Source: Candidatus Gottesmanbacteria bacterium RIFCSPLOWO2_01_FULL_43_11b (GTDB lineage Bacteria; Patescibacteriota; Microgenomatia; UBA10105; UBA927). From it: a DNA stretch of 64,000 nt. The notes below the pieces were generated by a model. The model ran no database searches. It worked only from the letters and a program-made list of their open reading frames with translations, and was not told where the DNA came from. The position numbers were made by a program, and so were the translations under genes. Below are positions 1-57,284 of this stretch, piece by piece. Every line of letters starts with the position of its first letter. Positions within the stretch are counted from its first letter, which is position 1. The stretch spans positions 158,980-222,979 of the forward strand of contig MFJV01000001.1 in the NCBI GenBank assembly GCA_001780985.1, read 5' to 3'.

Positions 1-1276
<1,276 letters not shown>

Positions 1277-2835: not shown

Positions 2836-3231
2836 TTACTCCGGATGGTGCAGCCCGAACAAGTGATCAAGACCATGAAGAGTTAATTCAATTATCTTAT
2901 CATCTACCATTTTATTTTCATCAACAGCTTGGGAAACTGCCTGCGGGTAAGAAACAACGATATCGCCAAATCGCATCACTCCGTCAGGATTATCCACAAA
3001 AGGCATGCCTTTAATTGTTGGATCATTGAGACCGAAAGAAAGAACATCTGTTGTGTCATCCAATTGTCGATAGCGACGGTTGAGTTCACGCATCCTGCGA
3101 TCTCCGACAATGGTTACACTTACCTCCGCATCACTTTTAACTTTTTGGCTGAGTGCTTGCGAAAGAGCAGTTTTTATTTTTTTTCGGTCCACGGGAAAGT
3201 GTGATTCCGTTTGAAAAAGAATGGTAATCAT
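2836..3231 (-). CDS. ybeY: rRNA maturation endoribonuclease YbeY
   Basis: 131 aa. Metal-binding motif HGLDHLFGLHH (HxxxHxxxxxH) near the C-terminus. Confidence 0.7.
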   Translation of the reverse strand: MITILFQTESHFPVDRKKIKTALSQALSQKVKSDAEVSVTIVGDRRMRELNRRYRQLDDTTDVLSFGLNDPTIKGMPFVDNPDGVMRFGDIVVSYPQAVSQAVDENKMVDDKIIELTLHGLDHLFGLHHPE

Positions 3232-3674
3232 TTCGTCATCATTTGTTTAATGAGTCCTGATACACGCCCACCGTCCGCTTTTCCGGATACTTGTGCCATT
3301 GCTTGTTTCATGAGAATTCCGAAGTTCGTTTCACCAGAAGATACTATTGGTTCAAGGAGTTTTTTAAGTTCTTCATCACTTATCTGTTTCGGTAAGTACC
3401 CTTCGAGTATACCGAGTTCTACTTTTTCTTTATCCGCCAACTCCGTTCGTCCTGCCTTTTCAAACGCTTCAATAGATTCTTTGTGCGTCTTTACCTGTTT
3501 TTTAATGACATCCAGTACATCCGCTTCCGTCAGTTTCTTATCGGACTGATTACCGTACTTGGCAATTGCTGCGTTATTTATCGCAGAGAGAAGAAACCGG
3601 AGCGTATCACGGCCGGTTGTATTTCCGCTTTTAATTGCGGTGGTTAGTTCGGTTTTGAGCTGATCGAAAAGCAT
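3228..3674 (-). CDS. GatB/YqeY domain protein
   Basis: 148 aa. YqeY-like N-terminus (MLFDQLKTELTTAIKSGNTTGRDTLRFLLSAINNA). Confidence 0.65.
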   Translation of the reverse strand: MLFDQLKTELTTAIKSGNTTGRDTLRFLLSAINNAAIAKYGNQSDKKLTEADVLDVIKKQVKTHKESIEAFEKAGRTELADKEKVELGILEGYLPKQISDEELKKLLEPIVSSGETNFGILMKQAMAQVSGKADGGRVSGLIKQMMTK

Positions 3675-3679
3675 ATAGG

Positions 3680-3889
3680 TTAGTAATTGCGTCTTCCTGG
3701 ATGCTTCAGTCTTCGTTTGAGTTCTCTCTTTTTTTCTTTTCGGATTTCAGCAGGTTTTTGATAAAATTCTCTTTTTTTTAAATCCTGCAATACTCCTTCA
3801 GCTAAAACTTTGCGGGTAAATTTTCTGATAAGCGAATCGGAAGTATCTCCCGGTTGCGCTTTTACAAACACCATATGATTAAAATACAC
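3680..3889 (-). CDS. rpsU: 30S ribosomal protein S21
   Basis: 69 aa, basic. MVFVKAQPGDTSDSLIRKFTRKV... with a lysine/arginine-rich C-terminus. Confidence 0.8.
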   Translation of the reverse strand: MYFNHMVFVKAQPGDTSDSLIRKFTRKVLAEGVLQDLKKREFYQKPAEIRKEKKRELKRRLKHPGRRNY

Positions 3890-3895
3890 ACCTCC

Positions 3896-4216
3896 TTACA
3901 ACTTCCTCATCTTGTCAACGTTTCCGAGTATATGTATATGCATGTGATCGATAACTGCTGCGCCTTTACCGTTGTTGACTAAACGATACCCCATAATGTT
4001 CTGCTCTGCAATAACCTTTTTAATTGTTTTGACGAGATGCATCAAAATGTCCTCGTCAGCATCGGTCAATTGATCAATATGTTTTTTGGGTAAAACCAAA
4101 AAATGTACCGGTGCTTGAGGATGAATATCTGGAATTACCAAACAATTTTCATCCTCATAGATAGGTTTTGACGGAAGTTCTTTTGCAATAACTTTACAAA
4201 AAATGCAGTCGTTCAT
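3896..4216 (-). CDS. HIT-family (histidine triad) nucleotide hydrolase
   Basis: Histidine triad HMHIHILG. 106 aa. Confidence 0.75.
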   Translation of the reverse strand: MNDCIFCKVIAKELPSKPIYEDENCLVIPDIHPQAPVHFLVLPKKHIDQLTDADEDILMHLVKTIKKVIAEQNIMGYRLVNNGKGAAVIDHMHIHILGNVDKMRKL

Positions 4217-5040
4217 ATTTTTTCTATCGCCTCAATAATTTCCAGTAATGGTCTTTTACTTGGTCGCATGTCAGGATTTTTACTGCTTCCGTTTAATACC
4301 ATATGGCGACTAGCGTGAAGAAACCAAGTCGCCTCGGGTTCATCTTTTTTTAATGTATCATAAAGGTTGGTGAGATCAATCTCCTCTTTGGGCAATGATT
4401 TAATACGTAAATATCCTTTCTTCGGATCTTTACGAACGACAATGACGTACCCCATTTTTTGTGCAAGGTGCACTGCTTCATCATTGATCGTTTCCAATCC
4501 AAGGCCTTTCCCCCATTTTGTCGTAAATTCCTGACCTTTTTCTTTAATATCTTTCTCAGCCCACACTTTGTTTTGAAATAATTTATAGATTCCGTCAAGC
4601 GCTTTCATTCCAAGTTCTACGATTTGAATAGGATTATCCGCATAGAGAAGTCGCCAACCGTCGATCTGTGATACTAACCCCATGTTCCAAAAGTCAGCGG
4701 TCGGATTTGGGAAAAAAACTTCACGAAAATGGTCTATTTCATTAACCACTGCGCAAAGCCTTTCAAGTGCAGGGTCTGCACCGTGTTCCCGTTTGACCTC
4801 TTGATATATAAGAAGTGCTGCACAGGTATCCGCATCAGTCTGGTGATGGTCAAATTTTCCAAATGCCGTGTCAACGTGCAAAATATTTGGGTCACTGTCA
4901 GGATCTTTATTTTCTAATGATTTCCCTGCAGGAACAAATGCAAGACTCGCTTCCTCCCATCCTGGCAAGAAGGTCTTAACAAGCCAAATCGATGTTATAG
5001 CATCCAAATCCGGCCCAATATGCGCTACGATCGTCTTCAT
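4213..5040 (-). CDS. DHH-family phosphoesterase-like protein (NrnA-like N-domain; no obvious DHHA1 GGGH motif)
   Basis: Motif I HIGPDLDAITS (compare NrnA HxxPDxDAxGS). DHH motif KFDHHQT. Confidence 0.5.
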   Translation of the reverse strand: MKTIVAHIGPDLDAITSIWLVKTFLPGWEEASLAFVPAGKSLENKDPDSDPNILHVDTAFGKFDHHQTDADTCAALLIYQEVKREHGADPALERLCAVVNEIDHFREVFFPNPTADFWNMGLVSQIDGWRLLYADNPIQIVELGMKALDGIYKLFQNKVWAEKDIKEKGQEFTTKWGKGLGLETINDEAVHLAQKMGYVIVVRKDPKKGYLRIKSLPKEEIDLTNLYDTLKKDEPEATWFLHASRHMVLNGSSKNPDMRPSKRPLLEIIEAIEKI

Positions 5041-5082
5041 CGACTAAGTATACTGTTTTGGAGATTTGAGAACAAGTGGTTT

Positions 5083-5562
5083 CTATAACAGATCTATAGC
5101 CTTTTTAAGACCATTCCTTAAATCTACAAGCATAAGGGTCACCTCATAATTATGGACCCAGTTATTAGACAAATTCCGTACCTGGTTTTGGTACACTCTC
5201 TCAGACTCTGGAGATTCATCCACACGGAGTATTCGTTCTAGGGCATTGACAAAATCTTCCTTTTTCATTTTATGTTTTGGATGAAGTTTAATTCCAAAAG
5301 TCTCTATGTCTTCCCGATTTATTTCTTTTTGAGGGCTCACCGGCGGTTTGGTAAAAAATTCAGCCTCACATTCATTGCCACTTAGTAAATTCGACATTGC
5401 CTGTGCAAAGATCTTTACTGACTCAATACGGCGTAATTTTCCATTACCCATTTCGGGAAAGTATTTAAGTACTGTAACAGGATTTGGTTTTCCCGAAATT
5501 GCCTCCCGTGCTATTTGCCATAAACTACTCAAACCACCTTCGTTTCCTGGTAAGCGTGCCAT
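5083..5562 (-). CDS. hypothetical protein
   Basis: 159-aa ORF with protein-like composition. No recognisable motif. Preceded by an operator-like palindrome at 5658-5679. Confidence 0.4.
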   Translation of the reverse strand: MARLPGNEGGLSSLWQIAREAISGKPNPVTVLKYFPEMGNGKLRRIESVKIFAQAMSNLLSGNECEAEFFTKPPVSPQKEINREDIETFGIKLHPKHKMKKEDFVNALERILRVDESPESERVYQNQVRNLSNNWVHNYEVTLMLVDLRNGLKKAIDLL

Positions 5563-5684: not shown

Positions 5685-6065
5685 TTATTTTCGTAATTTG
5701 CTAATTTTATCAAGTGCTCTATTAACCTTATCCCAAAACACTTCCATCTTTTCCTCATGTATCAACTTTTCTAGAATCCGCTTTACGCCCTCCCCTCCTT
5801 TATCCAACCAATTTCCTACTCTGTTAATCGTTGAAGTGCTCACATGAAGTATAAAGTGTATATCTTCATAGCTGTATTCTTTTTGTATCATAAGAGCAAT
5901 CGCTAATCTTTTTGCCAACATGACTCGTTCTGTTTTCGTAAAAAAATCGTAGAAAAAATCCTTCGCTTCTGATTGAGATCGAATTGCACCTAACACCCAC
6001 AAAAAATCATCTCGAATTGAGTAATAGACATCTTTATGAATCGGATTACGAGAAATTTGTGTCAT
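5685..6065 (-). CDS. TrpR-like YerC/YecD family DNA-binding protein
   Basis: 126 aa. Sequence character typical of YerC/YecD Trp-repressor-like proteins, with a helix-turn-helix. The gene is flanked by two copies of a palindromic site. Confidence 0.6.
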   Translation of the reverse strand: MTQISRNPIHKDVYYSIRDDFLWVLGAIRSQSEAKDFFYDFFTKTERVMLAKRLAIALMIQKEYSYEDIHFILHVSTSTINRVGNWLDKGGEGVKRILEKLIHEEKMEVFWDKVNRALDKISKLRK

Positions 6066-6075
6066 TGCGTTCTAC

Positions 6076-6097
6076 TTTCATCTATCGATAGATGAAA
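6076..6097. promoter_or_regulatory. palindromic operator-like site TTTCATCTATCGATAGATGAAA + GTATTTTAT (copy A)
   Basis: Perfect 22-bp palindrome 11 nt upstream of the TrpR-like gene's start, overlapping a TTGACT/TATAAAAT promoter-like region. Confidence 0.5.
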
Positions 6098-6124
6098 GTA
6101 TTTTATAAGGAAAGTCAACGACTA

Positions 6125-7594
6125 TCAATACGCTTGGGCGAAAAGCCAGCGGTGGGTAGCGGGTTTGCCGCAGTGAACACACGTTCCCTTTTCTTCTTTC
6201 GGCACCTGCCTGCCGGCAGGCAGGTCTAAGGGTAAACAACGGTTTGAAGCTTTGGTTTCTGCTTTAATTTTTGTTTCGCACGAGGCATCCTCACACCAAA
6301 ATGCGGAAATAAATCCCCGCTCCCCCGCCATAATCTTTTTAAAATGATCATACGATTCTACCGTATGTGTATGATCCAGAGTAAATTTCTTGTGAGTTTC
6401 CAATAAATTTTGTTGTATCGTCTCTAACATGCCAGAAATTTCATCGATACTAACTTTCTTTTTTTGCATTGTATCGCGAGCAACAGCAGTAACTATTCCT
6501 TCTTCCGCTTCCTTATCACCAATCTCAAGTCGGATCGGCACACCCCGGACCTCCCATTTATTAAATTTAAAGCCTGCACTTTCCCCATCTTTATCATCGC
6601 ATTTGACGCGAATCCCTATTTTTTTCAGCGCCTCTCTTTGTGCTATTGCATATTTTATGGTTTTAGGGCTCGATCCAGGAATAGGAATAAGGATCACCTG
6701 AATAGGTGCGATATTTGGAGGCATAATGAGCCCTTGATCGTCTCCGTGCGCCATGATGAGCCCGCCGATACTTCTTGTGGAGAATCCCCAACTGTTTTGC
6801 CACGGATAGAGCGGCTGTCCTTTTTCATCCTGCACAGTCCAATGAAATGCTTTTGCAAAATTTTGACCTAAATCGTGTGACGTACAACCTTGAAGCGCCT
6901 TACCATCCGGCATCAACATTTCAAAGGTATACGTTTTCTTAGCACCGGCAAATTTTTCCGATTCGCTCTTAACACCTGCAACACCGTAGAGAGCGAGAAG
7001 ATTCTGGTACGTCTCTTTGTACATATCGAGTGCCCAACGAACCTCGGAAACCGACTCTTTGTGAGTATTATGAGCGCAGTGTCCTTCCTGCCACAGAAAT
7101 TCACTCGTTCGTAAAAAGAGATACGTTCGCTTCTCCCATCGAACAATGTTATTCCATTGATTGATGCGGATTGGCAAATCTCTGTAGCTTTGAGTCCAAC
7201 GTTTGTACATTTCATACATAATCGTTTCACTGGTCGGCCGCACCACTAAGCGTTCTTTGAGTTCTTCTCCGCCAGCAAAAGTCACCACAGCCATATGAGG
7301 AGCAAATCCCTCTACGTGTTCTTTTTCAAGATTAAGGAATTTTTCCGGTATAAAGAGAGGAAAATACGCATTCTCCACTTTATGAGCTTTAATAAGTGGA
7401 TCCATGTAGTGTTGAATTCCTTCCCATAGCGCGAATCCATACGGACGAATAACCATACACCCCTTTATCGGCGCGTAATCGGCAAGTTGGGCTTTCAAAA
7501 TAACGTCTGTATACCAATCCGATAGATTGTCGCTTTTTTTCTTGAGCTCTTTCTTTTCAAATTGCTTTTGCATATTAGTAAAGTTTTCCTCCAA
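6125..7594 (-). CDS. proS: prolyl-tRNA synthetase, archaeal/eukaryotic type
   Basis: 489 aa. Class II aaRS core. C-terminal zinc module CVHCGKPATHRWLFAQAY ending in Tyr. Contains an in-frame copy of the 20-bp palindrome, encoded as DLPAGRQV. Confidence 0.9.
   Translation of the reverse strand: MEENFTNMQKQFEKKELKKKSDNLSDWYTDVILKAQLADYAPIKGCMVIRPYGFALWEGIQHYMDPLIKAHKVENAYFPLFIPEKFLNLEKEHVEGFAPHMAVVTFAGGEELKERLVVRPTSETIMYEMYKRWTQSYRDLPIRINQWNNIVRWEKRTYLFLRTSEFLWQEGHCAHNTHKESVSEVRWALDMYKETYQNLLALYGVAGVKSESEKFAGAKKTYTFEMLMPDGKALQGCTSHDLGQNFAKAFHWTVQDEKGQPLYPWQNSWGFSTRSIGGLIMAHGDDQGLIMPPNIAPIQVILIPIPGSSPKTIKYAIAQREALKKIGIRVKCDDKDGESAGFKFNKWEVRGVPIRLEIGDKEAEEGIVTAVARDTMQKKKVSIDEISGMLETIQQNLLETHKKFTLDHTHTVESYDHFKKIMAGERGFISAFWCEDASCETKIKAETKASNRCLPLDLPAGRQVPKEEKGTCVHCGKPATHRWLFAQAY
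6205..6224. repeat. 20-bp perfect palindrome CCTGCCTGCCGGCAGGCAGG (copy 1 of 3), in-frame in proS
   Basis: Exact self-complementary 20-mer. Flanks a/t extend it to 22 bp here. Confidence 0.9.
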
Positions 7595-10550: not shown

Positions 10551-11011
10551 TTATCTAATCCTAAAGCAATTCGACTGAATTTAGCAACTGCGATGTTTTC
10601 TCCGACTTTGGCGACGGTTTGTTTGACAAAATCTCCTATTGTCACCTTTGGATCACGGATATATTCTTCTTTGAGAAGTTCCGTGATGTTTTTGGGGTTC
10701 ATGGAGGCAACTTGTAAACAAATCTCGTGAGCAAGATGCTTAAATTCATCAGTTCGTGCAACAAAATCCGTCTCACAACGGAGTTCGACAAGAACACCAA
10801 TTTTACCATTTGCATGAACGTATGACTCAATAATCCCCTGTGATGTTTCTTTCCCTTCTTTCTTAGCAGCTTTCTCAAGCCCTCGTTCTGTGATGAGTTT
10901 CACAGCTTTTTCGAAGTCACCCTTTGCATCCTCAAGTGCCTGCCGGCAGTCAGAAACACCGGCTTGTGTTTTTTCTCTAAGTTTTTTTATATCATCAAGT
11001 TTTACTTGCAT
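10547..11011 (-). CDS. tsf: elongation factor Ts (short form)
   Basis: MQVKLDDIKKLREKTQAGVSDCRQALEDAKGDFEKAV (UBA-like N-terminus) and ...VELRCETDFVARTDEF. The upstream K/R-rich extension in the ORF track is the rpsB tail read in another frame, so the start is set at the internal Met. Confidence 0.85.
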   Translation of the reverse strand: MQVKLDDIKKLREKTQAGVSDCRQALEDAKGDFEKAVKLITERGLEKAAKKEGKETSQGIIESYVHANGKIGVLVELRCETDFVARTDEFKHLAHEICLQVASMNPKNITELLKEEYIRDPKVTIGDFVKQTVAKVGENIAVAKFSRIALGLDK

Positions 11012-17532: not shown

Positions 17533-17611
17533 GTAAAACTTGACAATATTCTAGCATATCTTTAGTATGAAGAGGTTAGGTTCTTTAAAAGAGGGCGGAA
17601 ATTGGAAAATT

Positions 17612-17770
17612 TAAAGCGTGTGGACCAGCCCCTCGCGAGGAGCTGGTATACGAGGAAGGGGAAAATCGAATAGCCCGCCAGTCGGCGGATAAATCTGCGG
17701 ATACCCCTTGGTAGCGCTCTCTACCACAACAATAGACAGAAATGACTATTGAGGAGCCCGTCTCTCTTTC
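17612..17770 (+). ncRNA. glmS ribozyme (GlcN6P-responsive self-cleaving riboswitch), 5' leader of glmS
   Basis: AGCGUGUGGACCAGC...GCUGG is a P1 hairpin. ACGAGGAAGG...AUCGAAUAGCCCGCCAGUCGGCGGAU matches the conserved core GACGAGGA...AUCGAAUU..CGGCGGAUGCC of the B. subtilis glmS ribozyme. It lies directly upstream of glmS. Confidence 0.55.
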
Positions 17771-17778
17771 TAAACTTC

Positions 17779-19551
17779 ATGTGTGGAATATTTGGCTACG
17801 TTGGTCCTAGCCCTCATGGTGCAAAGATAGTTCTTGAAGGTCTCAAACGACTTGAATATCGCGGTTACGATAGTTGGGGAGTTGCTGTTGTACCTGCTTC
17901 AAAGGGTAAAATTGTCGTAAAGAAAAAAGCCGGAAGAATAGGCAAAGCTAGTGTTTCTGATATGCCAAAAGGGTCTGTTGCGTTCGGGCATACCCGCTGG
18001 GCAACCCATGGAGGAGTTACCGATGTTAATGCACACCCTCACCTTGACTGCACAGGAAATCTTGCTGTCATTCACAATGGTATTTTTGAAAACTATGAGA
18101 GTATAAAGCAGGATCTTATTAAAAAAGGGCACCGTTTTATCTCCCAAACAGATACCGAAGTTATCGCCCACCTCATTGAAGAATATGCAAAGACCATGAT
18201 GTTAAGTAAGGCAGTGCAACGGGCGTATAACGAAATGGAAGGTCTTAACGCATTCATAGTTATCCAGACAAAAGAACACCTCCTCCTTGGGGTAAGAAAT
18301 GGGTCACCCTTAGTCGTCGGATTCGGAGATCCGGAAAATTATTTGGCAAGTGATGCTGCAGCGCTCATTCCCCATACCCGGCAGGTTCATTTTCTTGAAG
18401 ATGATCAAATGGTAATTGTTGGAACTGATCAGGTAAACATATTTAACGCAAGAACCGGTGAACGCATTCGTCCGCTTAAACAGAAACTTACCTGGTCAGC
18501 AGAGCAGGCAGAAAAAGGAAAATTCCCTTATTTCATGCTGAAAGAAATTTATGAACAGCCCGGGCTTATTTCAGAAATTGCCGGAGAATCAACGATCCAA
18601 GCCAAAAAAATTGCGGAGGTTCTTAAAAACGCACATGGCGCCTATATCGTTGGCTGCGGAACTGCCGGATATGCTGCTCTTGCTGCTCAATATCTCTTTT
18701 CAGCCATATCAAACAGACACGTTAACTCTGTTATTGGCAGCGAATTTGGCTACCTCCAAAATTTTCTCGTGAAAAGAAGTGCCGTACTTGCCCTTTCACA
18801 ATCCGGCGAAACCATGGATATTCTTGAGGGAGTCAAGAAAGCCAAAGACAAAGGTGCAAAAATTGTTTCTTTGGTTAATGTCGTCGGATCCTCGCTTTGG
18901 CGGTTATCAGATGTAAGACTCCCAATTGGTGTAGGGCCGGAGAAAGGGGTCGCATCTACCAAAGCATTCATCGGGAAACTTACCCATCTCATACTTCTCT
19001 CTTACGCAATGATAGGCAAAATTACCAAGGGTCAGCGGATACTCACGCGGGCTGCAAAAGCAGCAACCGAGGTTCTCAAAGAGCAGCGGGTGAGTAAAAT
19101 AATGAAACTTGCAAAAAAACTCAAAAATACGGAACATATTTTTGTTATCGGGAGAGGGCTTTCATATCCTGCGGCGCTTGAAACAGCGCTAAAAATTAAG
19201 GAAATTTCCTATATCCATGCCGAGGGCTTGGCCGCAGGGGAACTCAAACACGGCCCACTTGCGCTTGTGACGAAAGGCATTCCCTGCATCGTATTTGCAC
19301 CCAACGATGAAACACAGGGAGCAAATCTTGCGGGAGCCATGGAAATGAAAGCACGAGGTGCGTATATTATCGGGATCTCACCCAAAAAGCATGAGGTTTT
19401 TGATTATTATCTGCCGGTTAAAGACGTGGGAGAGGCAACAATTATTCCCAATGTCATCGTTGCCCAGCTTCTGGCGTACTATTTAGCAATAGAGCGCGGC
19501 TTCGACCCCGATATGCCGAGGAATCTAGCAAAAAGTGTAACAGTAAAATGA
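17779..19551 (+). CDS. glmS: glutamine--fructose-6-phosphate aminotransferase
   Basis: Starts MCGIFGYVG (N-terminal Cys nucleophile). Two SIS domains. Ends ...KSVTVK. Confidence 0.9.
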   Translation: MCGIFGYVGPSPHGAKIVLEGLKRLEYRGYDSWGVAVVPASKGKIVVKKKAGRIGKASVSDMPKGSVAFGHTRWATHGGVTDVNAHPHLDCTGNLAVIHNGIFENYESIKQDLIKKGHRFISQTDTEVIAHLIEEYAKTMMLSKAVQRAYNEMEGLNAFIVIQTKEHLLLGVRNGSPLVVGFGDPENYLASDAAALIPHTRQVHFLEDDQMVIVGTDQVNIFNARTGERIRPLKQKLTWSAEQAEKGKFPYFMLKEIYEQPGLISEIAGESTIQAKKIAEVLKNAHGAYIVGCGTAGYAALAAQYLFSAISNRHVNSVIGSEFGYLQNFLVKRSAVLALSQSGETMDILEGVKKAKDKGAKIVSLVNVVGSSLWRLSDVRLPIGVGPEKGVASTKAFIGKLTHLILLSYAMIGKITKGQRILTRAAKAATEVLKEQRVSKIMKLAKKLKNTEHIFVIGRGLSYPAALETALKIKEISYIHAEGLAAGELKHGPLALVTKGIPCIVFAPNDETQGANLAGAMEMKARGAYIIGISPKKHEVFDYYLPVKDVGEATIIPNVIVAQLLAYYLAIERGFDPDMPRNLAKSVTVK

Positions 19552-23711: not shown

Positions 23712-24906
23712 TCGATCTATGGAGGAGTACTCCGATAAGTATTGGTATAATGGGAAGCACTCGAAGCCATAACCGCGTCACAGCAATTTCGTCTCCAAAC
23801 TGCAGGAAAATGTAAAGCAAAATAAATCCTGCAACTCGAAATACGCTTATCACAACCGACTGTTCAAGTAATAAATGATATTTATTCTTCCATCCTCCGG
23901 GAGATGCATCAAGCACACGATAAACCTCAAGTGTCAGAGCATTCACATAAAAGGCCGCTGTCATTCCTAAAACAAGTATATACACCCATCCGCCAAAAAT
24001 AGTATCGAATGATCCCAATGAATACACTGCGATAACGGTGCCTATTACTCCTATCCAAAACCCATACCGATACCGTTTGAGAAATGCAATCGAGACAATG
24101 CTGCCGATTGCTCCCAAAGCGGAGGCGACTGTTAATGCAAGTCCAAGTGCCGCTTCCCCTCTCAAAAGTATGTACAGCAAGATTCCGGATACTGTTGACA
24201 ATGCAACGTCGAAAAATCCCATAAGCCCTTGCTGCCACAGCACAAGACCCCATCGTGTACTTCGACGGTGGTGTATTACGTGTCTATACGAAAATTGCGG
24301 TGGATCATGAGAAGGAAGTTTCTCTATAAGAATGACCGCTGCAGTCAAAATGGTAAACACGATGAGAAACAAAATCGCGTAACCTGTTGAAATCGATCCT
24401 GATAACTGTCCGATGCCGGCAATTATCCAGCCGCCCAAAACCGGCCCCAATGCGCTGGCAAAATTTATGAGCGCAAGATTCCAACCGATATACTCCGCAC
24501 GTCTTCCGGAATGGGTAAGTATATACTGATTGAGGTTAAACGCGGACCAGTAGTTACCGCCGGAAAATCCGCCTAAGATACCTAATGGCACTAAATACGC
24601 AATGCTCCTTTCCTTGAAGAAAAACAGTAGGAAATAATACAGGGCGCTTGCCAGAAAACTTATTTTCATCATAAGCCCTGATGAAATTTTCCGTAGCGTT
24701 ATTCCTGAAAGTCCGTAGAAAAATGCGAATGATGTAAATGAAACGATGTTATAAAAAATTGTGGTTTTAAGGTCGCTATGGGCAAAGAAAAACACGCTGA
24801 CAAACACCCCTGCAAGGGCGTAGGAGAGAAAGTTTAAAAATTGGATGATTATGAGCTTACGCTCTTCGTTAGATAAATTCCGCATATTTAGCCCATTGTA
24901 ACGCAA
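23647..24906 (-). CDS. MFS transporter
   Basis: 419 aa. Twelve predicted hydrophobic segments and MFS-like loop motifs. Confidence 0.65.
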
Positions 24907-24938
24907 AAAACATTTTTCTCAAAGGTACCGAGCCGCCG

Positions 24939-24958
24939 CCTGCCTGCCGGCAGGCAGG
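24939..24958. repeat. 20-bp perfect palindrome CCTGCCTGCCGGCAGGCAGG (copy 2 of 3)
   Basis: Exact match to copies at 6205-6224 and 37006-37025. Lies 37 nt upstream of the msrB ATG, inside an in-frame extension that lacks an ATG. Confidence 0.9.
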
Positions 24959-24994
24959 TTTAGTGGAAAATACTACAACAACCACGATCCCGGA

Positions 24995-25258
24995 ATGTAT
25001 GTTTGTGTTTCGTGTGGGAATAAATTATTCAGTAGCGACACCAAATACGATAGCGGCACCGGCTGGCCGAGTTTTTGGAAAACTTCGGGAAAAGTAAAAA
25101 CGAGTGAGGATCATTCTATGGGAATGATTCGCACCGAGGTTATGTGCGGAAACTGTAGCGCACACCTCGGACATGTCTTTAATGACGGCCCTCGAGACAA
25201 AACCGGTCTACGCTACTGCATTAATTCCCTCGCCCTCGATTTTCGACCGAAGGAGTGA
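24995..25258 (+). CDS. msrB: peptide-methionine (R)-S-oxide reductase MsrB (short N-terminus)
   Basis: CVSCG...GTGWPSFW...[16 protein letters not shown]...RYCINS. The in-frame upstream extension (..[13 protein letters not shown]) continues MsrB-like sequence. Confidence 0.8.
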
Positions 25259-27966: not shown

Positions 27967-28663
27967 CATGTTTATTCCCGGTTTTCACCGGGGCATGGAC
28001 TATATCTTCATCCGCAAAAATTGACGTTTTTCTGGATGAACCGAACCAATTATTTTTGCAAAATCGTTGTAAGACCTTGCCGAAATATAAAATCTCCAAT
28101 AATTCGGATCAACCGTTTTACTAGGATTATGAATTACTCCACAATGAATACTTAATTCTTCTAAATAGTGTTTTACTTGTAAAAGATCTTGCTTGTCCTT
28201 TTGACAAAAATACAAGTAATACCTCACCGAAGAATTTTTAGCAATACCACCTTCTGCATCGAAATAACCTCGGATATATTCGATTTTGTCGTTCTTAGAA
28301 CGTATTTCAATATCTCGTAAAATCTTTTTCGGAAATTCTACTATCCAAAGATTACGAGACTTTCCTTCTTTATATATCCAAGCTCCAACATGTAATTTAC
28401 GAATTCCTATTTTTAGAAACTGCGCAAATTCTCTACTGTTAGTTGCTATTCGATAGGTAGATTGCCGACTGGTACCATCGTGAGCCATTCCCAATAAATA
28501 TGGTTTCGTCATATGCGGCGCCAACGTGTAGTCTCTACGGAGTCCCCGATATAATCAGGGTTCCCTCGGTATTCCCATATGTTGATTATAAACCAAGCAT
28601 GAAGGGTTCACCGATACAGTTGGATTTTCCCATACCCTTACGGATATGGGTCGCAACAAACTT
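27967..28663 (-). mobile_element. group-I-like intron in 16S rRNA between AAGTCGT and AACAAGG (about E. coli position 1498/1499)
   Basis: The conserved 16S sequence CCTTGTT|ACGACTT is split by 697 nt. The 5' exon ends in U and the intron ends in G (omega-G). It contains a LAGLIDADG ORF. Confidence 0.6.
28000..28524 (-). CDS. intron-encoded LAGLIDADG homing endonuclease
   Basis: 174 aa. LAGLIDADG-type motif YIRGYFDAEGGIA. Basic, inside the 16S intron. Confidence 0.65.
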   Translation of the reverse strand: MAPHMTKPYLLGMAHDGTSRQSTYRIATNSREFAQFLKIGIRKLHVGAWIYKEGKSRNLWIVEFPKKILRDIEIRSKNDKIEYIRGYFDAEGGIAKNSSVRYYLYFCQKDKQDLLQVKHYLEELSIHCGVIHNPSKTVDPNYWRFYISARSYNDFAKIIGSVHPEKRQFLRMKI

Positions 28664-29056
28664 ACGACTTAGTCCCCATCGCTGAGTTCGGCTTCGACCG
28701 TAAAAACGGCCTTCAGCCGCCCCCAACTTTGTTGGCTTGACGGGCGGTGTGTACAAGACCCGAGAACGTATTCACCGCAGCCTTCTGATCTGCGATTACT
28801 ACCGATTCCGACTTCATGAGGGCGGGTTGCAGCCCTCAATCTGAACTGAGGCGAAATTTCAGGGATTTGCTTGCCATTACTAGTTTGCATCCCATTGTTT
28901 TTCGCCATTGTAGGGTGTGTGTTACCCAGGGTATAAGCGCCGTGCTGACTTGACGTCGTCCGTTCCTTCCTCCCCGATACATATCGGGGCAGTCTCCGAT
29001 GACACTTATAACATCGGATACGGGTTGCGCTCGTTCTCCTACTTAAAGGAACACCC

Positions 29057-29087
<31 letters not shown>

Positions 29088-29202
29088 GCTGTGATACCAT
29101 CCTTGCGGATAGCCTACTATTTCTAGCGGGTTAAAACGGTACCATGTCAAACCCTGGTAAGGTTTTTCGCTTTGTCTCGAATTGAACCACACGCTCCACC
29201 GG

Positions 29203-29234
<32 letters not shown>

Positions 29235-30286
29235 TAATCTTGCGATCGTACTCCCCAGGCGGTCTGCTTAACGCGTTAGCTTACGTCAGTCCCCCTTGCG
29301 GCGGACCAACTAGCAGACATGCGTTTAGGGCTAGGACTACGCAGGTCTCTAATCTGCTTCGCTCCCCTAGCTTTCGTGTCTCAGCGTTAGGTGTGGGCCA
29401 GAAAGGTGCCTTCGCCTTTGGTGTTCCTCATGATATCAACGCATTTCACTGCTTCACCATGAGTTCCCCTTTCCTCTCCCATCCTCAAAGACTCCCCATC
29501 TCGAACCCAACGCCGAGGTTAAGCCTCGGGCTTTCAGGTTCGATGCGGAAATCCGCCTACACGACACTTTACGCCCAGTGAATCCGGATAACGCTTGCAC
29601 CCTACGTATTACCGCGACTGCTGGCCCGCCACAATTTTTTGTAGCGAACTTTGGACTATATCATCACCCCACAGATTGGGGGTCTCGCGTGTAGTCTCTG
29701 AGGACTCTCCCCGCCATCCTTTCATTATAAATGAAGGCGGAGGTTGCCTGCTGATTGTCTTGATACATGCTTGCTTTCGCAAAACTATTTCGCGGACATA
29801 TCAAGGTGTTCCAGCATATAGCGAGATTTTCTTTTACCGTATTACTACAGTAACTACGCACCATCCGATTACATCGAATCACGTAGTTTGTAGGTGCTTA
29901 TTCGCCAAACCTCGATGATCTGGCAAAAGAGGTTTACATACCGAAATACTTCATCCCTCACGCGGCGTCGCTCGGTCAGGCTTTCGCCCATTGCCGAATA
30001 TTCCTAGTTGCTGCCATCCGTAGATGTATAGCCCGTGTCTCAGTGCTATTGTGGGGGGTCGCGCTCTCACGCCCCCTACCCGTCATCGCCTTGGTAGGCC
30101 ATTACCCCACCAACAAGCTGATAGGAGCAAGGCCGCTCTTCCTCCGTGCCGTTACGCACTTTGATCTTACGACCTCATGGAATATTACCCCGTCTTTCGA
30201 CGAGCTATGTTCCAGAAAAAGGTACGTTCCTTGCTTATACTCACCCGTCCGCCACTAATCTTTCGACCGTTCAACTTGCATGCCTA

Positions 30287-30329
<43 letters not shown>

Positions 30330-30470
30330 AAAAAAAATTAACGTCCCGGATATCATGATTCGCTTACGCTCATCACCATCCGGGTCCGGCTGATGTCGCA
30401 ACGCGACATAATAGCCGGATTCCTATCACCATTCGTTTGTCAAATGTTAATGTGCGACTCTCAATGAGCG

Positions 30471-36520: not shown

Positions 36521-38524
36521 TTATTTTATATCTTCTTTCTTCCATGCTGCAAATGTGCAGTTGGGGTAGTTTGAACAACCGTAAAATGTTTTGCCGCGGC
36601 GGGTCTTTTTAATCACAATATCTCCCCCATCCCTCGGGCATTTCATATCAATTTTTTCTGCAAATTGGCGCGTATATTTGCACGCTGGAAAGTTACTGCA
36701 GGCGATAAATTTCCCGTATCTTCCCACACGCAAAACGAGCTGATGACCGCAGTCCGGGCACTTTTCATCAAGTAATTCAACCGGCGTTTTTACTTTTTCT
36801 GCCTGATCGAAAGCTGCGTCAAGCTCTTTGGCAAAAGGCGTATAAAAATCTCTTATTACAGGCACCCACTCTACTTGCCCGTCGGCAATAGCGTCTAAGT
36901 TATCCTCCATAGTTGCGGTAAAGGGGATATCAATAATATTCGGAAAATATTTTATTAGGAAATCGTTGACCAAAAAGCCCAATTCAGTTGGTTTCAACTT
37001 TTTTCCCTGCCTGCCGGCAGGCAGGTCTTCCCGCACTATGTACTGGCGTTCCTGAATTGTTGAAATAACCGGCGCATAGGTAGAAGGGCGTCCGATCCCT
37101 TTTTCCTCAAGCGTTTTAATTAGCGAAGCCTCATTGTAGCGAGGGGGTGGATTTGTAAAATGTTGTTCTGGTATGGCTTGGTTAAATCCTATTTCTTGCC
37201 CCTGTGTAACCTCGGGAAGAACAACTTCCCCGTTATCTTTTCCGAGAATTTTCAAAAACCCCTCAAATTTTATAACCGATCCCTGGGCTTCAAAAAGATA
37301 CGTATTGCTACTTGTAATTTTTATCGTTGTGGAATCAAAAATCGCTTCAGCTGCCTGGCTTGCGAGCGCCCGTATCCAAATAAGCTCATAGAGTCTGATA
37401 TGGTCACGGTTAAGTTCTGCGCTGTCGATCGTAAGCTGAGCGCCTTGTACAGTTGCATCTGTGGGTCTAATTGCTTCGTGAGCCTCCTGGGCTGATTTTG
37501 ATTTTGTTTTGTATCGACGCGCCTCTGCCGGTACATACTCTTTGCCGTATTCTTTTTCTATATAATCCCGCGCTTCACTAATAAATTTCTCAGACAGGTT
37601 AAAACTGTCGGTTCTGTGGTAGCTTATCAAACCCTCTTCGTAGAGTTTTTGAGCAAGTTGCATTGTGCGTTTCGCAGAAAAGTATAATCTTCGGCCCGCA
37701 TCCTGCTGGAGTGTGCTTGTCGTATAGGGAGGGGCCGGAAACCGTCTCACTTCTTTTTTGTCTACTGAAGAGACGATATAGGGTGATTTTAAATCTTTGA
37801 TTATGGTATCTGCTGCGTTTTGGTCAGTTATTGTCGAGGAAGCCGTAGTATATTTTCCGTCAAAAAGATCAAATTCAAGATTTTTTTCATACAAAACACC
37901 CTCTTTGGAAACCAGGTGTGCATGAATTTCCCCGAATACCCCTTCAATTGTCCAGAACTCTTCTTTTTGAAATTTTTCTATTTCTCTTTCCCGCTCAACG
38001 ATAAACCGTACGGCGACTGATTGAACCCTTCCTGCTGAAAGCCAACGGCGGGAAAGTTTCTGCCAAAGGAGTGGGGACAATTTGTATCCAACAAGTCGAT
38101 CTAATATCCTTCTAGCCTGCTGCGCGTTTACGAGTTTTTGGTCAATTTCACGCGGATGCGTTAGCGCTTCGGCAATCGCGTGTTCCGTTATCTCATGGAA
38201 TACTATTCGAGTAAACTTCGACTTTTTTAGTGTGTCCGCAACGTGCCAGGCAATTGCCTCTCCCTCCCGATCCGGGTCGGTTGCAAGAATAATCGAATCT
38301 GCCTTCTTTGCTGCGTCTTTGAGTTCTTTGGCGCGCTTTGCTTTCGCACGCGGGGTGACATATCTGGGGGTAAAGTCATGATCGACATCAACCCCGAGTT
38401 CGGATTTCGGCAAATCACGAATATGCCCCATCGATGCTTCAATTCGATAATCTTTACCGAGAAATCTCGACAGAGTTTTAGCTTTTGTTGGTGATTCAAC
38501 AATAATGAGATGATAATTTTTCAT
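36521..38524 (-). CDS. topA: DNA topoisomerase I
   Basis: TOPRIM N-terminus. Active-site region ...LISYHRTDS.... C-terminal Cys4 zinc ribbons. Contains palindrome copy 3, encoded as EDLPAGRQG. Confidence 0.9.
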   Translation of the reverse strand: MKNYHLIIVESPTKAKTLSRFLGKDYRIEASMGHIRDLPKSELGVDVDHDFTPRYVTPRAKAKRAKELKDAAKKADSIILATDPDREGEAIAWHVADTLKKSKFTRIVFHEITEHAIAEALTHPREIDQKLVNAQQARRILDRLVGYKLSPLLWQKLSRRWLSAGRVQSVAVRFIVEREREIEKFQKEEFWTIEGVFGEIHAHLVSKEGVLYEKNLEFDLFDGKYTTASSTITDQNAADTIIKDLKSPYIVSSVDKKEVRRFPAPPYTTSTLQQDAGRRLYFSAKRTMQLAQKLYEEGLISYHRTDSFNLSEKFISEARDYIEKEYGKEYVPAEARRYKTKSKSAQEAHEAIRPTDATVQGAQLTIDSAELNRDHIRLYELIWIRALASQAAEAIFDSTTIKITSSNTYLFEAQGSVIKFEGFLKILGKDNGEVVLPEVTQGQEIGFNQAIPEQHFTNPPPRYNEASLIKTLEEKGIGRPSTYAPVISTIQERQYIVREDLPAGRQGKKLKPTELGFLVNDFLIKYFPNIIDIPFTATMEDNLDAIADGQVEWVPVIRDFYTPFAKELDAAFDQAEKVKTPVELLDEKCPDCGHQLVLRVGRYGKFIACSNFPACKYTRQFAEKIDMKCPRDGGDIVIKKTRRGKTFYGCSNYPNCTFAAWKKEDIK
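37006..37025. repeat. 20-bp perfect palindrome CCTGCCTGCCGGCAGGCAGG (copy 3 of 3), in-frame in topA
   Basis: Exact match to copies 1 and 2. Confidence 0.9.
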
Positions 38525-41514: not shown

Positions 41515-41916
41515 TCAATCGCTTCTTTGGGTATCATTAATTTCCTTTGGTTTAAGGAATTTTTTTACTTTTTCCGTCATAAAATGCTTGCGGTCAAGAG
41601 TGACGAGAGCGTCACATGAGGCTTTTTTAGCTTCAGCAAGAATAATCGCGTCTTTTTCTACAATAATCCTTCTTGCCTTACTCATTGCCGTATGGTCGGG
41701 TTTTTGGTCAATAATGGAAAGTTTTTCTGCCAGAAGAAAAAATCGCTCGAGGTGATACGTTTGCAGTTTTTTTCGGACATTTCGTTCAACCTCTGTGAGC
41801 ACGACCTTGGAAGTGACAAGTTCTACGCCATGAAGAGTAAACAGTTTTGCCGACCCGCCTGTCGGAGAGTTCACTGCAGTAAAAAAGACGCTTGAGTCCA
41901 AAAACAGGCGTTTCAT
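41515..41916 (-). CDS. PIN-domain toxin (VapC-like)
   Basis: MKRLFLDSSVFF (first acidic residue). Further conserved Asp residues. 133 aa. 1-nt junction with the upstream antitoxin. Confidence 0.6.
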   Translation of the reverse strand: MKRLFLDSSVFFTAVNSPTGGSAKLFTLHGVELVTSKVVLTEVERNVRKKLQTYHLERFFLLAEKLSIIDQKPDHTAMSKARRIIVEKDAIILAEAKKASCDALVTLDRKHFMTEKVKKFLKPKEINDTQRSD

Positions 41917-42174
41917 TTAGAGGACGTCGTTTTTCTCCCACTCGGCAATCTCTCGATCACTAAATATTCGCGTGAACGGAAGAAGTACGGGATCGATAAA
42001 CGTTTTTTTGTAGAGTTTGCTCAGGTCTTTTTGGAGTTTGGCAAGGTAAGCAACATCAACGAGCGCTGCTTTTGGCATGCCGCCCTTGGTGAGAATAATA
42101 TAATCATCACCCTGCACTTTATCAACAAGATCACCCAGTTTCCCTCGTGCTTTCGTGATAGGAAGAATATTCAT
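41917..42174 (-). CDS. Phd/YefM-type antitoxin
   Basis: 85 aa. MNILPITKARGKLGDLVDKVQGDDYIILTKGGMPKAALVDV is typical of YefM/Phd. Confidence 0.6.
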   Translation of the reverse strand: MNILPITKARGKLGDLVDKVQGDDYIILTKGGMPKAALVDVAYLAKLQKDLSKLYKKTFIDPVLLPFTRIFSDREIAEWEKNDVL

Positions 42175-50403: not shown

Positions 50404-51237
50404 ATGACCATTATTTTTTTCGGCTCATTTCAAAAGTACTCGGTTCAGGTTTTAGAAAAACTTACCAATAATTTTTCCGTTACTGCTGTTATTACTACAC
50501 CCCCAAAACCTGCTGGGCGACACATGGAACTTAAACCAACTGAGGTTGCTCTGTATGCGCGGTCCAACAAACTTCCACTTTATGAACTTTATGAACTTTC
50601 TACTATTCCCGACATTCCTCGTCCTGATTTTATCGTTGTTGCTGGTTACGGCAGGCTTATTCCTCCGCTTTGGCTCGAATTTCCCAAAATTATGGCAGTC
50701 AATATGCACCCGTCGCTCTTGCCGCAATACCGCGGCGCATTCCCTGCTGAATGGGCAATACTCAATATGGAAAAAGAAACAGGGGTAACTCTCGTTAAAA
50801 TGTCTGCGGAATTTGATAAAGGGGACATCATTGCTCAAAAAAAATTTGTAATTGAACCGAGCGATACCCGCGAAACGCTCTATAAAAAACTTTATGATAT
50901 GGGAGCAAAGCTTTTGGTCGATACGTTACCTGCCAAAATTACTCCCCGTCCTCAAGCAAGCGGTGATTTTTTCTACGCGCGAAGGCTCACAAGAGACGAC
51001 GGCTTTGTGCCGTGGGAAGAATTTACGAAGGATATCTCTAAACTTGAAAGGAAACTGCGCGCGCTAACCCCATGGCCCGGCGTTTGGACCCGCCTGCCAG
51101 CGCCTGAGCGCAGCGATGGCGGGCAGGCCAAAACCCCACAGGGAAAAAGGCTAAAACTCCTCTCTCTTAATCCTCCAACTGTTCAGCTTGAAGGCAAAAA
51201 GCCTTCCCTCTTGACAGACCTATCACACTTATCCTAG
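50404..51237 (+). CDS. fmt: methionyl-tRNA formyltransferase
   Basis: MTIIFFGSFQ..., NMHPSLLPQYRG (formyltransferase SLLP motif). Confidence 0.85.
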   Translation: MTIIFFGSFQKYSVQVLEKLTNNFSVTAVITTPPKPAGRHMELKPTEVALYARSNKLPLYELYELSTIPDIPRPDFIVVAGYGRLIPPLWLEFPKIMAVNMHPSLLPQYRGAFPAEWAILNMEKETGVTLVKMSAEFDKGDIIAQKKFVIEPSDTRETLYKKLYDMGAKLLVDTLPAKITPRPQASGDFFYARRLTRDDGFVPWEEFTKDISKLERKLRALTPWPGVWTRLPAPERSDGGQAKTPQGKRLKLLSLNPPTVQLEGKKPSLLTDLSHLS

Positions 51238-56316: not shown

Positions 56317-57284
56317 AACGATTCGCGCTCTTGCTTCCGTTACTTTTGCTTATCATAGCCATTCCGATCGGAGTCTACTATATTGGGCAAAGACAAGATA
56401 TTCGAGATCGGGCTGCTCCATCAACAACGCTCTCACTGTCTCCTTCATCCATATCAAAACAACAGGGTAATACTCTTTCCCTCGATGTAACTATCGACAC
56501 GGGAGAAAATACAGTCTCTGCGATTGAACTTGTCGTCAACACCGATCCGGCAAAAGTAAAAATAACAGGTATCGCTGCCGATGATTTTTTTAGCCAATCC
56601 CTCATTGAACCGGCGTTCACCGACAGCCGTGCCACCATGACCCGCGGTACACCACCGACATCTCCGCGTCAAGGAACCGGAACGGTGGCTACAGTCACAT
56701 TAGAAGTCGTCGCGGGAAACGGAACCGCCCAGATTACACTGGCAGGATCTCAAGTTGCTGGCATTGGTGAGCAGGGAAATGTTTTGAGTGGTACGGCGCC
56801 TGCAACGGTCACGATCACCTCTTCGACAAATCCGACTCCGACGCCCACTCCAACATCAGCTCCCGGGAGCACACCCACGCCCACACCCACCCCAACTCCA
56901 ACCCCAACAGAATCAGGGGAAACAGGAGCTGTTTCTCTTACAAGTCCGGTAAGCGGAGCAACGGTAACGACTGATACACCCACGCTTAAGGGAACCGCGC
57001 CTGCCGGCAGCACGGTCACGATTACTATTTACAGTGATCCGATCACGGTCACCGTAACCGCAGATAGTAATGGACGTTGGACCTATACTCCAACCCAATC
57101 ACTTTCCGATGGACAGCATCAGGTCGTCATATCAACAGCGGCAGAAGACGGATCGACGCTGACAGAGTCATCATCCTTTTATGTCCAAACGCAGGATATT
57201 CCGGTAACCGGAAATAACTGGCTTTACATAACCCTGATTGTCGCAGGGTTATTTTTCATTGGTTCTGGTATGCTGATACTGTGA
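56313..57284 (+). CDS. cohesin-like + PT-linker + Ig-like domain protein with a C-terminal hydrophobic anchor
   Basis: GENTVSAIELVVNTDPAKVKITGIAADDF...QGTGTVATVTLEV. PTPTPTS linker. Ig-like repeat. Ends ..IPVTGNNWLYITLIVAGLFFIGSGMLIL. Confidence 0.45.
   Translation: MKRFALLLPLLLLIIAIPIGVYYIGQRQDIRDRAAPSTTLSLSPSSISKQQGNTLSLDVTIDTGENTVSAIELVVNTDPAKVKITGIAADDFFSQSLIEPAFTDSRATMTRGTPPTSPRQGTGTVATVTLEVVAGNGTAQITLAGSQVAGIGEQGNVLSGTAPATVTITSSTNPTPTPTPTSAPGSTPTPTPTPTPTPTESGETGAVSLTSPVSGATVTTDTPTLKGTAPAGSTVTITIYSDPITVTVTADSNGRWTYTPTQSLSDGQHQVVISTAAEDGSTLTESSSFYVQTQDIPVTGNNWLYITLIVAGLFFIGSGMLIL

Follow-up and report, generated by a model that had tools for sequence, protein, structure and literature searches.

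Copies of the palindrome in the window and their host genes

The stretch analyzed here (the window) comprises 64,000 nt of contig MFJV01000001.1 (positions 158,980 to 222,979, forward strand) of Candidatus Gottesmanbacteria bacterium RIFCSPLOWO2_01_FULL_43_11b, a member of the Candidate Phyla Radiation (CPR; Patescibacteria) with a genome of about 1.02 Mb. It contains three exact copies of a 20-nt perfect palindrome, CCTGCCTGCCGGCAGGCAGG (the 20-mer), located in proS, msrB and topA. The copies occupy positions 6205-6224, 24939-24958 and 37006-37025, as given in the preliminary description of this DNA; the expected number is zero, and none of 100 dinucleotide-preserving shuffles of the window (G+C content 41-46%) yields any match. 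The flanks of the three copies are mutually unrelated, and no additional copies are found in the window with up to three mismatches allowed. If the adjacent A and T are included, the perfect palindrome at the first copy is 22 nt long (6204-6225). A single strand of the 20-mer DNA is predicted to form a hairpin with 8 bp in the stem and CCGG in the loop (dG about -8 kcal/mol), and no Rfam family covers it.

The first copy lies in proS (6125-7573, minus strand), which encodes an archaeal/eukaryal-type prolyl-tRNA synthetase (ProRS), and is read there as LPAGRQ(V), within a 7-residue insert directly preceding the C-terminal zinc module. The third copy lies in topA (36521-38524, minus strand) between ...ERQY(I/V)V(R/K)E and KKLKPTELG, so that DLPAGRQG replaces E; here the inserted segment comprises the 20-mer and one additional G on the coding strand (37005-37025). 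Both copies are translated in frame as DLPAGRQ, as was proposed initially. The unit of insertion has to be corrected from 20 to 21 nt, since a 20-nt element does not preserve the reading frame; the net length of the proS insertion is also 21 nt, that is, 7 residues.

The second copy, initially placed upstream of msrB, is in fact a 20-nt insertion within the msrB (SelR) frame (gene remnant 24873-25258, plus strand), where it separates ...KGTEPP from FSGKYY... and causes a frameshift, the upstream and downstream frames being 20 nt apart. The 87-aa C-terminal open reading frame (ORF; 24995-25258) matches positions 30-116 of the Pfam SelR profile, and in silico removal of the 20-mer extends this match to positions 11-116. 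The N-terminal piece, in a separate frame, ends at 24938, has no canonical start codon and overlaps the start of a divergent MFS transporter gene at 24885. Given the frameshift, the missing start codon and the 5' end abutting the divergent gene, msrB is probably a pseudogene.

Two further sites, in tsf (10940-10949) and in a cohesin/Ig gene (57001-57010), contain the core 10-mer CTGCCGGCAG and had been listed as partial copies. They differ from the element in 4-5 of 20 positions, and in tsf this stretch codes for a conserved EF-Ts motif, SDCRQALE, without any insertion. Judged by this comparison, both are native or chance sequence, and they are not counted as copies here.

Derived and recurrent insertions in TopA and ProRS

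Among 120 TopA orthologues compared, the nearest ones (76-82% identity) read ...YV(V/I)(K/R)EEKKLKPTELG without an insert, while the window protein reads ...YIVREDLPAGRQGKKLKPTELG; the solved TopA structures show a matching 7-residue gap at the same position. At the DNA level, the empty sites have GAAGA directly followed by AAAG (loci L125, L126, L128), and the filled ones have GAAGA-CCTGCCTGCCGGCAGGCAGGG-AAAG (the window, L121, L122, L123). No target bases are duplicated in the filled sites relative to the empty ones; short target duplications, suggested initially as a feature to look for, are thus absent where the two states can be compared. Similarly, ProRS orthologues (which have the Pfam domains PF00587, PF03129 and PF09180) read RCLPLDAKEEKG, and the window ProRS is longer by 7 residues. 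The comparison with orthologues proposed in the preliminary description therefore favors insertion, the LPAGRQ segment being absent from the orthologues of both proteins.

The TopA site is filled at the identical nucleotide in at least six separate Gottesmanbacteria lineages (P0001/2, P0025+P0043, P0041, P0102, P0077 and P0010), each having empty nearest relatives, and the taxonomic pattern of filled sites is patchy and polyphyletic. Three of the six lineages have decayed and still in-frame inserts (DLPDGRQG, DLSDGRQG, DLHAGRQG). Moreover, other lineages have inserts at two further sites in TopA (P0056, P0087) and at a second site in ProRS (P0170), with the LPAGRQ frame used throughout. The same frame predominates in long ORFs elsewhere that carry the 20-mer, which fits selection against the two frames that contain cysteine. 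From these alignments, the 20-mer in TopA and ProRS is a derived, recurrent insertion. Removal of the element from the RNA was considered for both proteins and is ruled out, as the decayed variants keep the frame but alter the residues.

Distribution among genomes and viruses

The exact 20-mer was searched in one genome per GTDB species (596 Gb in total). It was found at at least 120 loci from approximately eight phyla, compared to about 0.5 matches expected by chance, so that compositional bias, raised initially as a possible explanation, does not account for its frequency. The carriers are Patescibacteria, Bacteroidota, Omnitrophota, Planctomycetota, Bdellovibrionota (Bdellovibrionales), Gamma- and Delta-proteobacteria, Nitrospirota (Thermodesulfovibrionales) and Chloroflexi; the 120 genome matches listed include no cyanobacterial genomes. 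Four carriers are cultured isolates, all of them Bacteroidota (Winogradskyella, Flagellimonas, Longitalea, Flavivirga). The 20-mer was also observed in 35 viral contigs, some of which have several copies. In total, about 170 copies beyond the window were collected; their contexts and flanks are unrelated, and they occur on both coding strands and in intergenic DNA.

All-against-all BLAST comparison of the 400-nt flanks on either side of the copies revealed no common sequence, and hence no longer element around the 20-mer. A parent insertion sequence (IS) with 20-mer termini was rejected as well, as isolated 10-nt halves in 1.3 Mb of loci proved to be decayed or hybrid full elements. Literature searches gave no full-text match for the 20-mer, its sub-strings or LPAGRQ, and no paper was found on a bacterial cassette combining a GIY-YIG gene, a tRNA and a palindrome.

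Association with tRNA fragments and GIY-YIG genes

Several copies of the 20-mer reside in tRNA-like sequences that are not called by ARAGORN and are directly followed by an intact tRNA gene. The order of elements in such cassettes is: nucleotides 1 to p of the tRNA, the palindrome, tRNA nucleotides from p+1 to approximately p+5..30, an ORF of about 80 aa with a GIY-YIG domain, and the intact tRNA. Examples are L037 (Lys), L106 (Gly), L118 and the viral L160. In the cassette of L077, a palindrome variant replaces 19 nt; in L039, a different palindrome of 33 nt is found at the corresponding D-loop position; and degenerate cassettes lacking the ORF were identified in L030, L015 and the second tRNA of L239. 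In L231, L239 and L207 the ORF is placed between two elements.

The partner ORFs match the GIY-YIG catalytic domain (PF01541) with E-values from 1e-14 to 1e-17 and have invariant residues Y5, Y16, R26, H30 and E62, so the partner looks like an active nuclease. Among proteins of solved structure, UPF0213 members (1ZG2 and 1YWL) are closest to it, and SLX1 comes next.

To score the association in the reciprocal direction, 80 metagenome loci were selected by GIY-YIG protein similarity alone, of which 73 had sufficient flanks, and the palindrome was counted as present if it occurred with at most three edits within 170 nt upstream of the GIY-YIG ORF. It is present in 22 of the 25 loci with a tRNA immediately downstream (15 exact copies), where it lies in the duplicated upstream tRNA fragment, and in 3 of the 48 loci with no tRNA downstream (Fisher test, p = 1.7e-12).

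The insertion point depends on the tRNA. In tRNA-Leu it is in the D-loop between positions 14 and 15 (GGCGAA^ACTGG), and in tRNA-Arg between positions 21 and 22 (GGATA^GAGC); other insertions are in anticodon and T loops, and some fragments contain two copies. In approximately 20 pairs of a pseudo-tRNA and the respective intact tRNA, the insertion lengthens the sequence by exactly 20 nt; no bases are lost or duplicated, and the preceding base is nearly always A. Comparison of pseudo-tRNAs with intact tRNAs yields 1 mismatch per 276 positions 5' of the palindrome and 10 per 221 positions 3' of it (the latter alignment being rough near the end of homology); this contrast implies that the palindrome marks a boundary.

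Clustering of the GIY-YIG proteins shows that the association is clade-specific. Clades with the motif REKYLKSGIG(K/R)E(F/Y)LK nearly all carry the 20-mer, each clade being confined to one tRNA type, while in the large REKYLKSGMGKRYLK clade the 20-mer never occurs and some members have other palindromes. The linked GIY-YIG proteins are only 36-85% identical to each other, and the 20-mer is still preserved in 20 of 20 positions. An invariant 20-mer beside diverged proteins implies a constraint on the DNA sequence itself, most simply recognition by the GIY-YIG protein.

Other palindromes accompany other GIY-YIG clades. These are CCCGCCCGTACCGAACGGGTACGTTCGGGCGGG in L039 (880-912) and AACGGGCC..GGCCCGTT upstream of the ORF in L208 and L210, both located at the position equivalent to that of the 20-mer, and a further GC-rich palindrome, AGCACGTCTGACGTGCT, at the GIY-YIG loci L175, L186 and L229. 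Their arrangement suggests that more nucleases of this kind are paired with palindromes of their own. In L093, a 23S rRNA gene is interrupted by an intervening sequence with a GIY-YIG ORF (4758-5042, minus strand) that belongs to the same general family.

Target preference and variants of the element

For the analysis of target sites, 20 random positions per copy served as controls. A host stem of at least 7 bp brackets 6.6% of copies and 1.1% of controls, showing a bias towards hairpin loops. About 4% of copies are inserted near the center of an older copy (L018, L042, L021, L028, L133/L155). Flanking A and T extend the palindrome to 22 nt in 27% of copies, and 56% of solo copies have A at position -1 in either orientation, about 48% being expected.

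Exact 7-bp direct repeats flank 5 of 166 copies, as compared to 0.09% of controls, and tandem repeats with period 7 extending across the junction are 16-fold enriched; overall, heptamer contexts make up only 3-5% of copies. Copies from Bacteroidota, Planctomycetota and viruses (L101, L082, L080, L045, L147, L131, L137, L129, L152) are situated between short tandem repeats, mostly heptamers (AATTACG, TCTAAAA, GGTGAGA), sometimes of three or four units. These repeats might be accumulated footprints of insertion and excision.

Many variants are decayed or hybrid, including 21-mers composed of a 10-nt and an 11-nt half (CCGTGCCTGCC joined to GGCAGGCAGG, and CCATGCCTACC joined to GGCAGGCAGG). A tandem array of at least ten copies of a 21-nt hybrid variant, CCATGCCTACCGGCAGGCAGG, was found in the IMG/VR contig 3300025106_000007 (L162, approximately 3915-4142); the array reaches the end of the stretch examined, and the same contig has several other variants.

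One variant is located in a complete diversity-generating retroelement (DGR) of a Candidatus Uhrbacteria genome (L038, 3167-5219), which comprises a variable repeat (VR, 3167-3286), a template repeat (TR, 3662-3781) with adenine-specific (A-to-N) differences, and a reverse transcriptase gene (4233-5219). The variant, CCTGCCTGCCGGTAGGCAGGG, with one mismatch in the palindrome, occupies positions 3289-3309 directly 3' of VR and contains the stop codon of the target gene. A hairpin/cruciform is expected in DGRs immediately 3' of VR and the initiation of mutagenic homing (IMH) site (PMC3240598); the L038 variant, in distinction from the window copies, matches this expectation. The same locus also has an exact 20-mer at 3449, and a DGR-type reverse transcriptase gene is present near a copy in L010.

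Interpretation and alternative explanations

Our preferred reading, to which we assign a probability of about 0.6, is that the 20-mer is an ultra-small non-autonomous mobile palindrome and, at the same time, the cognate cis-element of UPF0213/Slx1-like GIY-YIG clades. The original suggestion of a selfish palindromic element residing in tolerant loops of ORFs is strengthened by the orthologues that lack the insert, by the genome loci found in many phyla and by the link to GIY-YIG genes. The co-occurring nuclease gene that it had been suggested to look for does have a counterpart, the stand-alone GIY-YIG genes of related loci, while no link to restriction-modification was seen. The sequence comparisons establish that a 20-nt block has been inserted repeatedly, that it has reached many phyla as well as phages, that hairpin loops are preferred, and that it is linked, physically and by protein clade, to GIY-YIG/tRNA cassettes; catalysis by the nuclease and the chemistry of insertion are inferred.

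According to this reading, the mobile unit is 20 nt long (with variants of 21-22 nt), codes for nothing and enters as an exact block without target duplication, usually just after A and preferably in DNA hairpin loops. Such loops include the D, anticodon and T loops of tRNA gene copies, host palindromes and the centers of older copies of the element itself. The GIY-YIG protein would be the mobilizing enzyme: a homodimeric nuclease, structure-specific like SLX1, may nick or cut stem-loop junctions, and the palindrome could then be placed at the break in trans, either as an excised copy that is pasted in or through repair in which another copy serves as a short template. The three copies in the window would be orphan (solo) ones sorted by selection. 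In essential genes only rare frame-preserving 21-nt events at surface turns (TopA, ProRS) are likely to survive, in the LPAGRQ frame that avoids cysteine, and frameshifting 20-nt events would persist only in dispensable or decaying genes such as msrB, in dead tRNA copies and in intergenic DNA.

Several observations weigh against this reading. The window contains no GIY-YIG gene, so a copy acting in trans in this organism is an assumption, and about 95% of the copies from the genome scan, among the matches listed, are solo copies remote from GIY-YIG genes. The link to pseudo-tRNAs could be explained by target preference combined with tolerance, the nuclease not being involved. We know of no strand-transfer catalysis by GIY-YIG nucleases, and hence the reading must also call on a ligase or repair pathway of the host. 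The additional G is identical in the six TopA lineages, which simple independent insertion of 20 nt does not account for; the 7-bp repeats flanking 3% of copies clash with the absence of duplications seen elsewhere; and, judging by the frequency of A at position -1, the sequence preference outside tRNA contexts is weak.

Some of these observations would fit mobility by other machinery, with the GIY-YIG cassettes being bystanders and dead tRNA copies merely tolerating a loop-preferring element. The candidates are some other transposase or recombinase, a conserved host enzyme, and transposition of a single-stranded hairpin as in IS200/IS605 or by a RAYT (REP-associated tyrosine transposase; REP, repetitive extragenic palindrome). 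Single-strand transposition by HUH enzymes, as in the IS608 and REP/RAYT systems, typically proceeds into hairpins and leaves no target duplication. Palindromes in tRNA fragments with no adjoining GIY-YIG ORF (L015, L030, L130/L153, the T-loop of L039, the second tRNA of L239), the predominance of solo copies and the absence of a GIY-YIG gene from the window point in the same direction. However, no Y1/HUH, DDE or recombinase gene recurs near the copies: a Pfam survey of 150 ORFs beside them revealed no recurrent transposase or recombinase, only two DGR-type reverse transcriptases and two 23S rRNA intervening-sequence (23S-IVP) proteins, and the viral contigs dense in elements have, apart from phage structural genes, one HNH domain as the only enzyme candidate. 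Mere tolerance also agrees poorly with the 88% occupancy of a fragment of about 35 nt, and the palindrome choice tracks the protein clade, other clades having other palindromes at the same tRNA position (L039, L208, L210), which argues for a cognate pair. Finally, identity in 20 of 20 positions across phyla needs a conserved recognizing protein, and GIY-YIG is the only co-occurring family found. We therefore consider other machinery unlikely, while leaving it an appreciable weight.

A related possibility is that the 20-mer is not itself transposed, being a repair scar, or "immunity patch", at a break caused by the nuclease or in some other way, after which the sealed site can no longer be cut; its source would be a short patch copied from another copy by microhomology, or the same 10-11-nt tail added to both ends. 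This would agree with the hybrids having unlike halves, some of them 21-mers of a 10-nt and an 11-nt half, with the palindrome located exactly at the boundary between the conserved left and the diverged right part of pseudo-tRNAs, and with the recurrent filling of the TopA site. It is nonetheless improbable, since exact copies with clean boundaries in about 170 unrelated contexts are hard to obtain by microhomology patching, the intact downstream tRNA keeps the supposed target uninterrupted, and we know of no bacterial activity that adds a defined 10-nt tail. Selection for a functional motif (a protein-binding site, an RNA or DNA hairpin regulator, or the LPAGRQ peptide), or an ancestral sequence lost elsewhere, would be consistent with the predicted hairpin, and the DGR variant of L038 at the expected hairpin/cruciform position (PMC3240598) indicates that copies can be co-opted. 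This explanation is largely refuted and has a very low probability, given the absence of the insert from the nearest orthologues and distant solved homologues, the patchy polyphyletic occurrence, the frameshift in msrB, the arbitrary placement of copies (either coding strand, intergenic DNA), and the lack of an Rfam match. Even less probable, to the point of being negligible, is a sequencing, adapter or assembly artefact: most matches do come from metagenome-assembled genomes (MAGs), but independent projects and assemblers recovered the same insert in TopA (Rifle/ANAN16, a separate NCBI MAG, Logan assemblies of other runs), cultured isolates carry the 20-mer in their genomes, point mutations have degraded some copies with the frame kept, and nested and hybrid copies exist.

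Two other ideas were rejected. Nothing supports a role of the palindrome as a restriction site (NaeI/NgoMIV in the center, BspMI-like ACCTGC in the 22-nt form), and a P-element-like excision footprint of a larger transposon would require a kilobase insertion in topA or proS, which would be lethal, and is also at odds with the absence of target duplication.

Returning to the cognate pair of palindrome and nuclease, we go further and propose, tentatively and at somewhat below even odds, that the 20-mer and the GIY-YIG genes represent an undescribed cross-phylum class of mobile elements, in which a structure-specific nuclease of about 80 aa, encoded in tRNA genes behind a tRNA copy split by the palindrome, mobilizes its own 20-nt recognition palindrome in trans into hairpin loops throughout the genome. 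If true, this would be the smallest known pair of an autonomous and a non-autonomous transposon, and one in which no DDE, HUH, serine or tyrosine transposase takes part. Such a pair would also provide a function for the UPF0213 family, whose structures 1ZG2 and 1YWL have no assigned function, and possibly account for the small dispersed repeats (SDRs) and heptamer-repeat phenomena of cyanobacteria.

The element is a tractable case for the study of very small mobile repeats, offering a fixed 20-nt sequence, hundreds of independent insertions, clean pairs of filled and empty sites, a defined target structure (hairpins and loops of tRNA genes) and a candidate enzyme family. The sequence has crossed phylum boundaries and entered phages, and in streamlined CPR genomes essential housekeeping proteins have been repeatedly remodelled by a DNA-driven insert of 7 residues (LPAGRQ). 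In annotation, the 20-mer flags frameshifted pseudogenes, dead tRNA copies and GIY-YIG cassettes, and a palindrome with its nuclease, if the two add a defined tag and duplicate no target bases, may be of interest as a tool.

Comparison with known systems

The closest analogy is provided by SDR1-8 of heterocystous cyanobacteria. As reportedly described by Elhai and co-workers in 2008, these repeats are 21-27 nt long, non-coding and potentially hairpin-forming; they are said to be nested in their own copies, often within tandem heptamers, and to differ in presence or absence between close relatives. We know of no enzyme or mechanism for them. The behavior of the 20-mer matches that of SDRs in its tiny size, dispersal among unrelated flanks, nesting, precise insertion and presence or absence at orthologous sites, and the heptamer contexts of 3-5% of copies may be a further resemblance; this likeness is to SDR1-8 as described, not to their sequences. 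Unlike SDRs, the 20-mer is hosted by Patescibacteria, Bacteroidota, Planctomycetota, Omnitrophota, others and phages, is one sequence identical across phyla, resides in frame in essential genes and has a candidate GIY-YIG partner. The 2008 study is cited in PMC3116915, PMC2884548 and PMC4390886, and a passage of the last states that SDR5 inserts precisely inside HIP1.

In systems of REPs, or their REPIN arrangements, and RAYTs, short palindromic non-autonomous repeats depend on a single-copy cognate enzyme gene flanked by repeats (PMC3116915, PMC3733652), and the repeat type co-varies with the enzyme clade, as the palindrome does with the GIY-YIG clade. REPs are extragenic, imperfect, species-specific, 20-40 nt long, with a GTAG or CGTC head and a Y1 HUH transposase, whereas the 20-mer is perfect, begins with CCTG, enters ORFs, is identical across phyla and has a GIY-YIG partner; neither the REP head nor the exclusively extragenic location nor a flanked Y1 transposase is observed. 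It also differs from miniature inverted-repeat transposable elements (MITEs), having neither a target-site duplication of fixed length nor a parent IS with the same terminal inverted repeats.

The analogy with Rickettsia palindromic elements (RPEs), drawn in the preliminary description, holds for behavior, as both are inserted in frame in coding and even essential genes at tolerant positions. It does not hold for size and range: RPEs are 100-150 bp long, restricted to Rickettsia and relatives and show no cross-phylum identity, while the 20-mer is 20-22 nt long and occurs in about eight other phyla. To our knowledge, RPEs have no link to GIY-YIG genes.

With free-standing GIY-YIG homing endonucleases (Seg of phage T4, relatives of I-TevI), the partner ORFs share the catalytic domain with its conserved residues and the location in highly conserved host genes (tRNA; 23S rRNA in L093), each clade keeping to one tRNA type. 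Unlike them, the partner ORFs consist of the domain only (about 80 aa) with no DNA-binding extension, the 5' part of the target gene is duplicated and interrupted by a fixed palindrome, and the palindrome also spreads alone. We are aware of no such companion palindrome described for known homing endonucleases.

Finally, GC-rich palindromic clusters of fungal mitochondria are also short and have spread in AT-richer genomes, sometimes into coding sequences, and the mitochondrial genomes that contain them are rich in GIY-YIG or LAGLIDADG genes (e.g. PMC7218506). These clusters differ from the 20-mer in being organellar, longer and variable in sequence, with no defined partner.

Other features of the window

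No other perfect palindrome is repeated in the window. A 28-nt perfect palindrome, TACTTTCATCTATCGATAGATGAAAGTA (6073-6100), occurs once, between the 3' end of proS and a gene of the Trp-repressor family (5685-6065); it is AT-rich, has no relation to the 20-mer and might serve as an operator or as a terminator for both directions. Near the 3' end of the ORF 50404-51237, CCCGCCTGCC ... GGCGGGCAGG (51089-51127, 19-nt spacer) form a GC-rich but imperfect inverted repeat; its arms resemble halves of the element with one mismatch each, possibly by chance or because the repeat acts as a terminator.

According to Rfam matches at the gathering score, the 16S rRNA gene (28616-30335, minus strand, about 1720 nt) contains a group I intron (29631-29890); introns in the 16S rRNA gene are typical of CPR bacteria. 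A match to the glmS ribozyme/riboswitch (17604-17761) is found directly upstream of a 600-aa ORF (17749-19551), and a pair of PhdYeFM antitoxin and PIN toxin genes (41515-42174, corresponding to L164 6351-7010) is located amid cell-wall genes.

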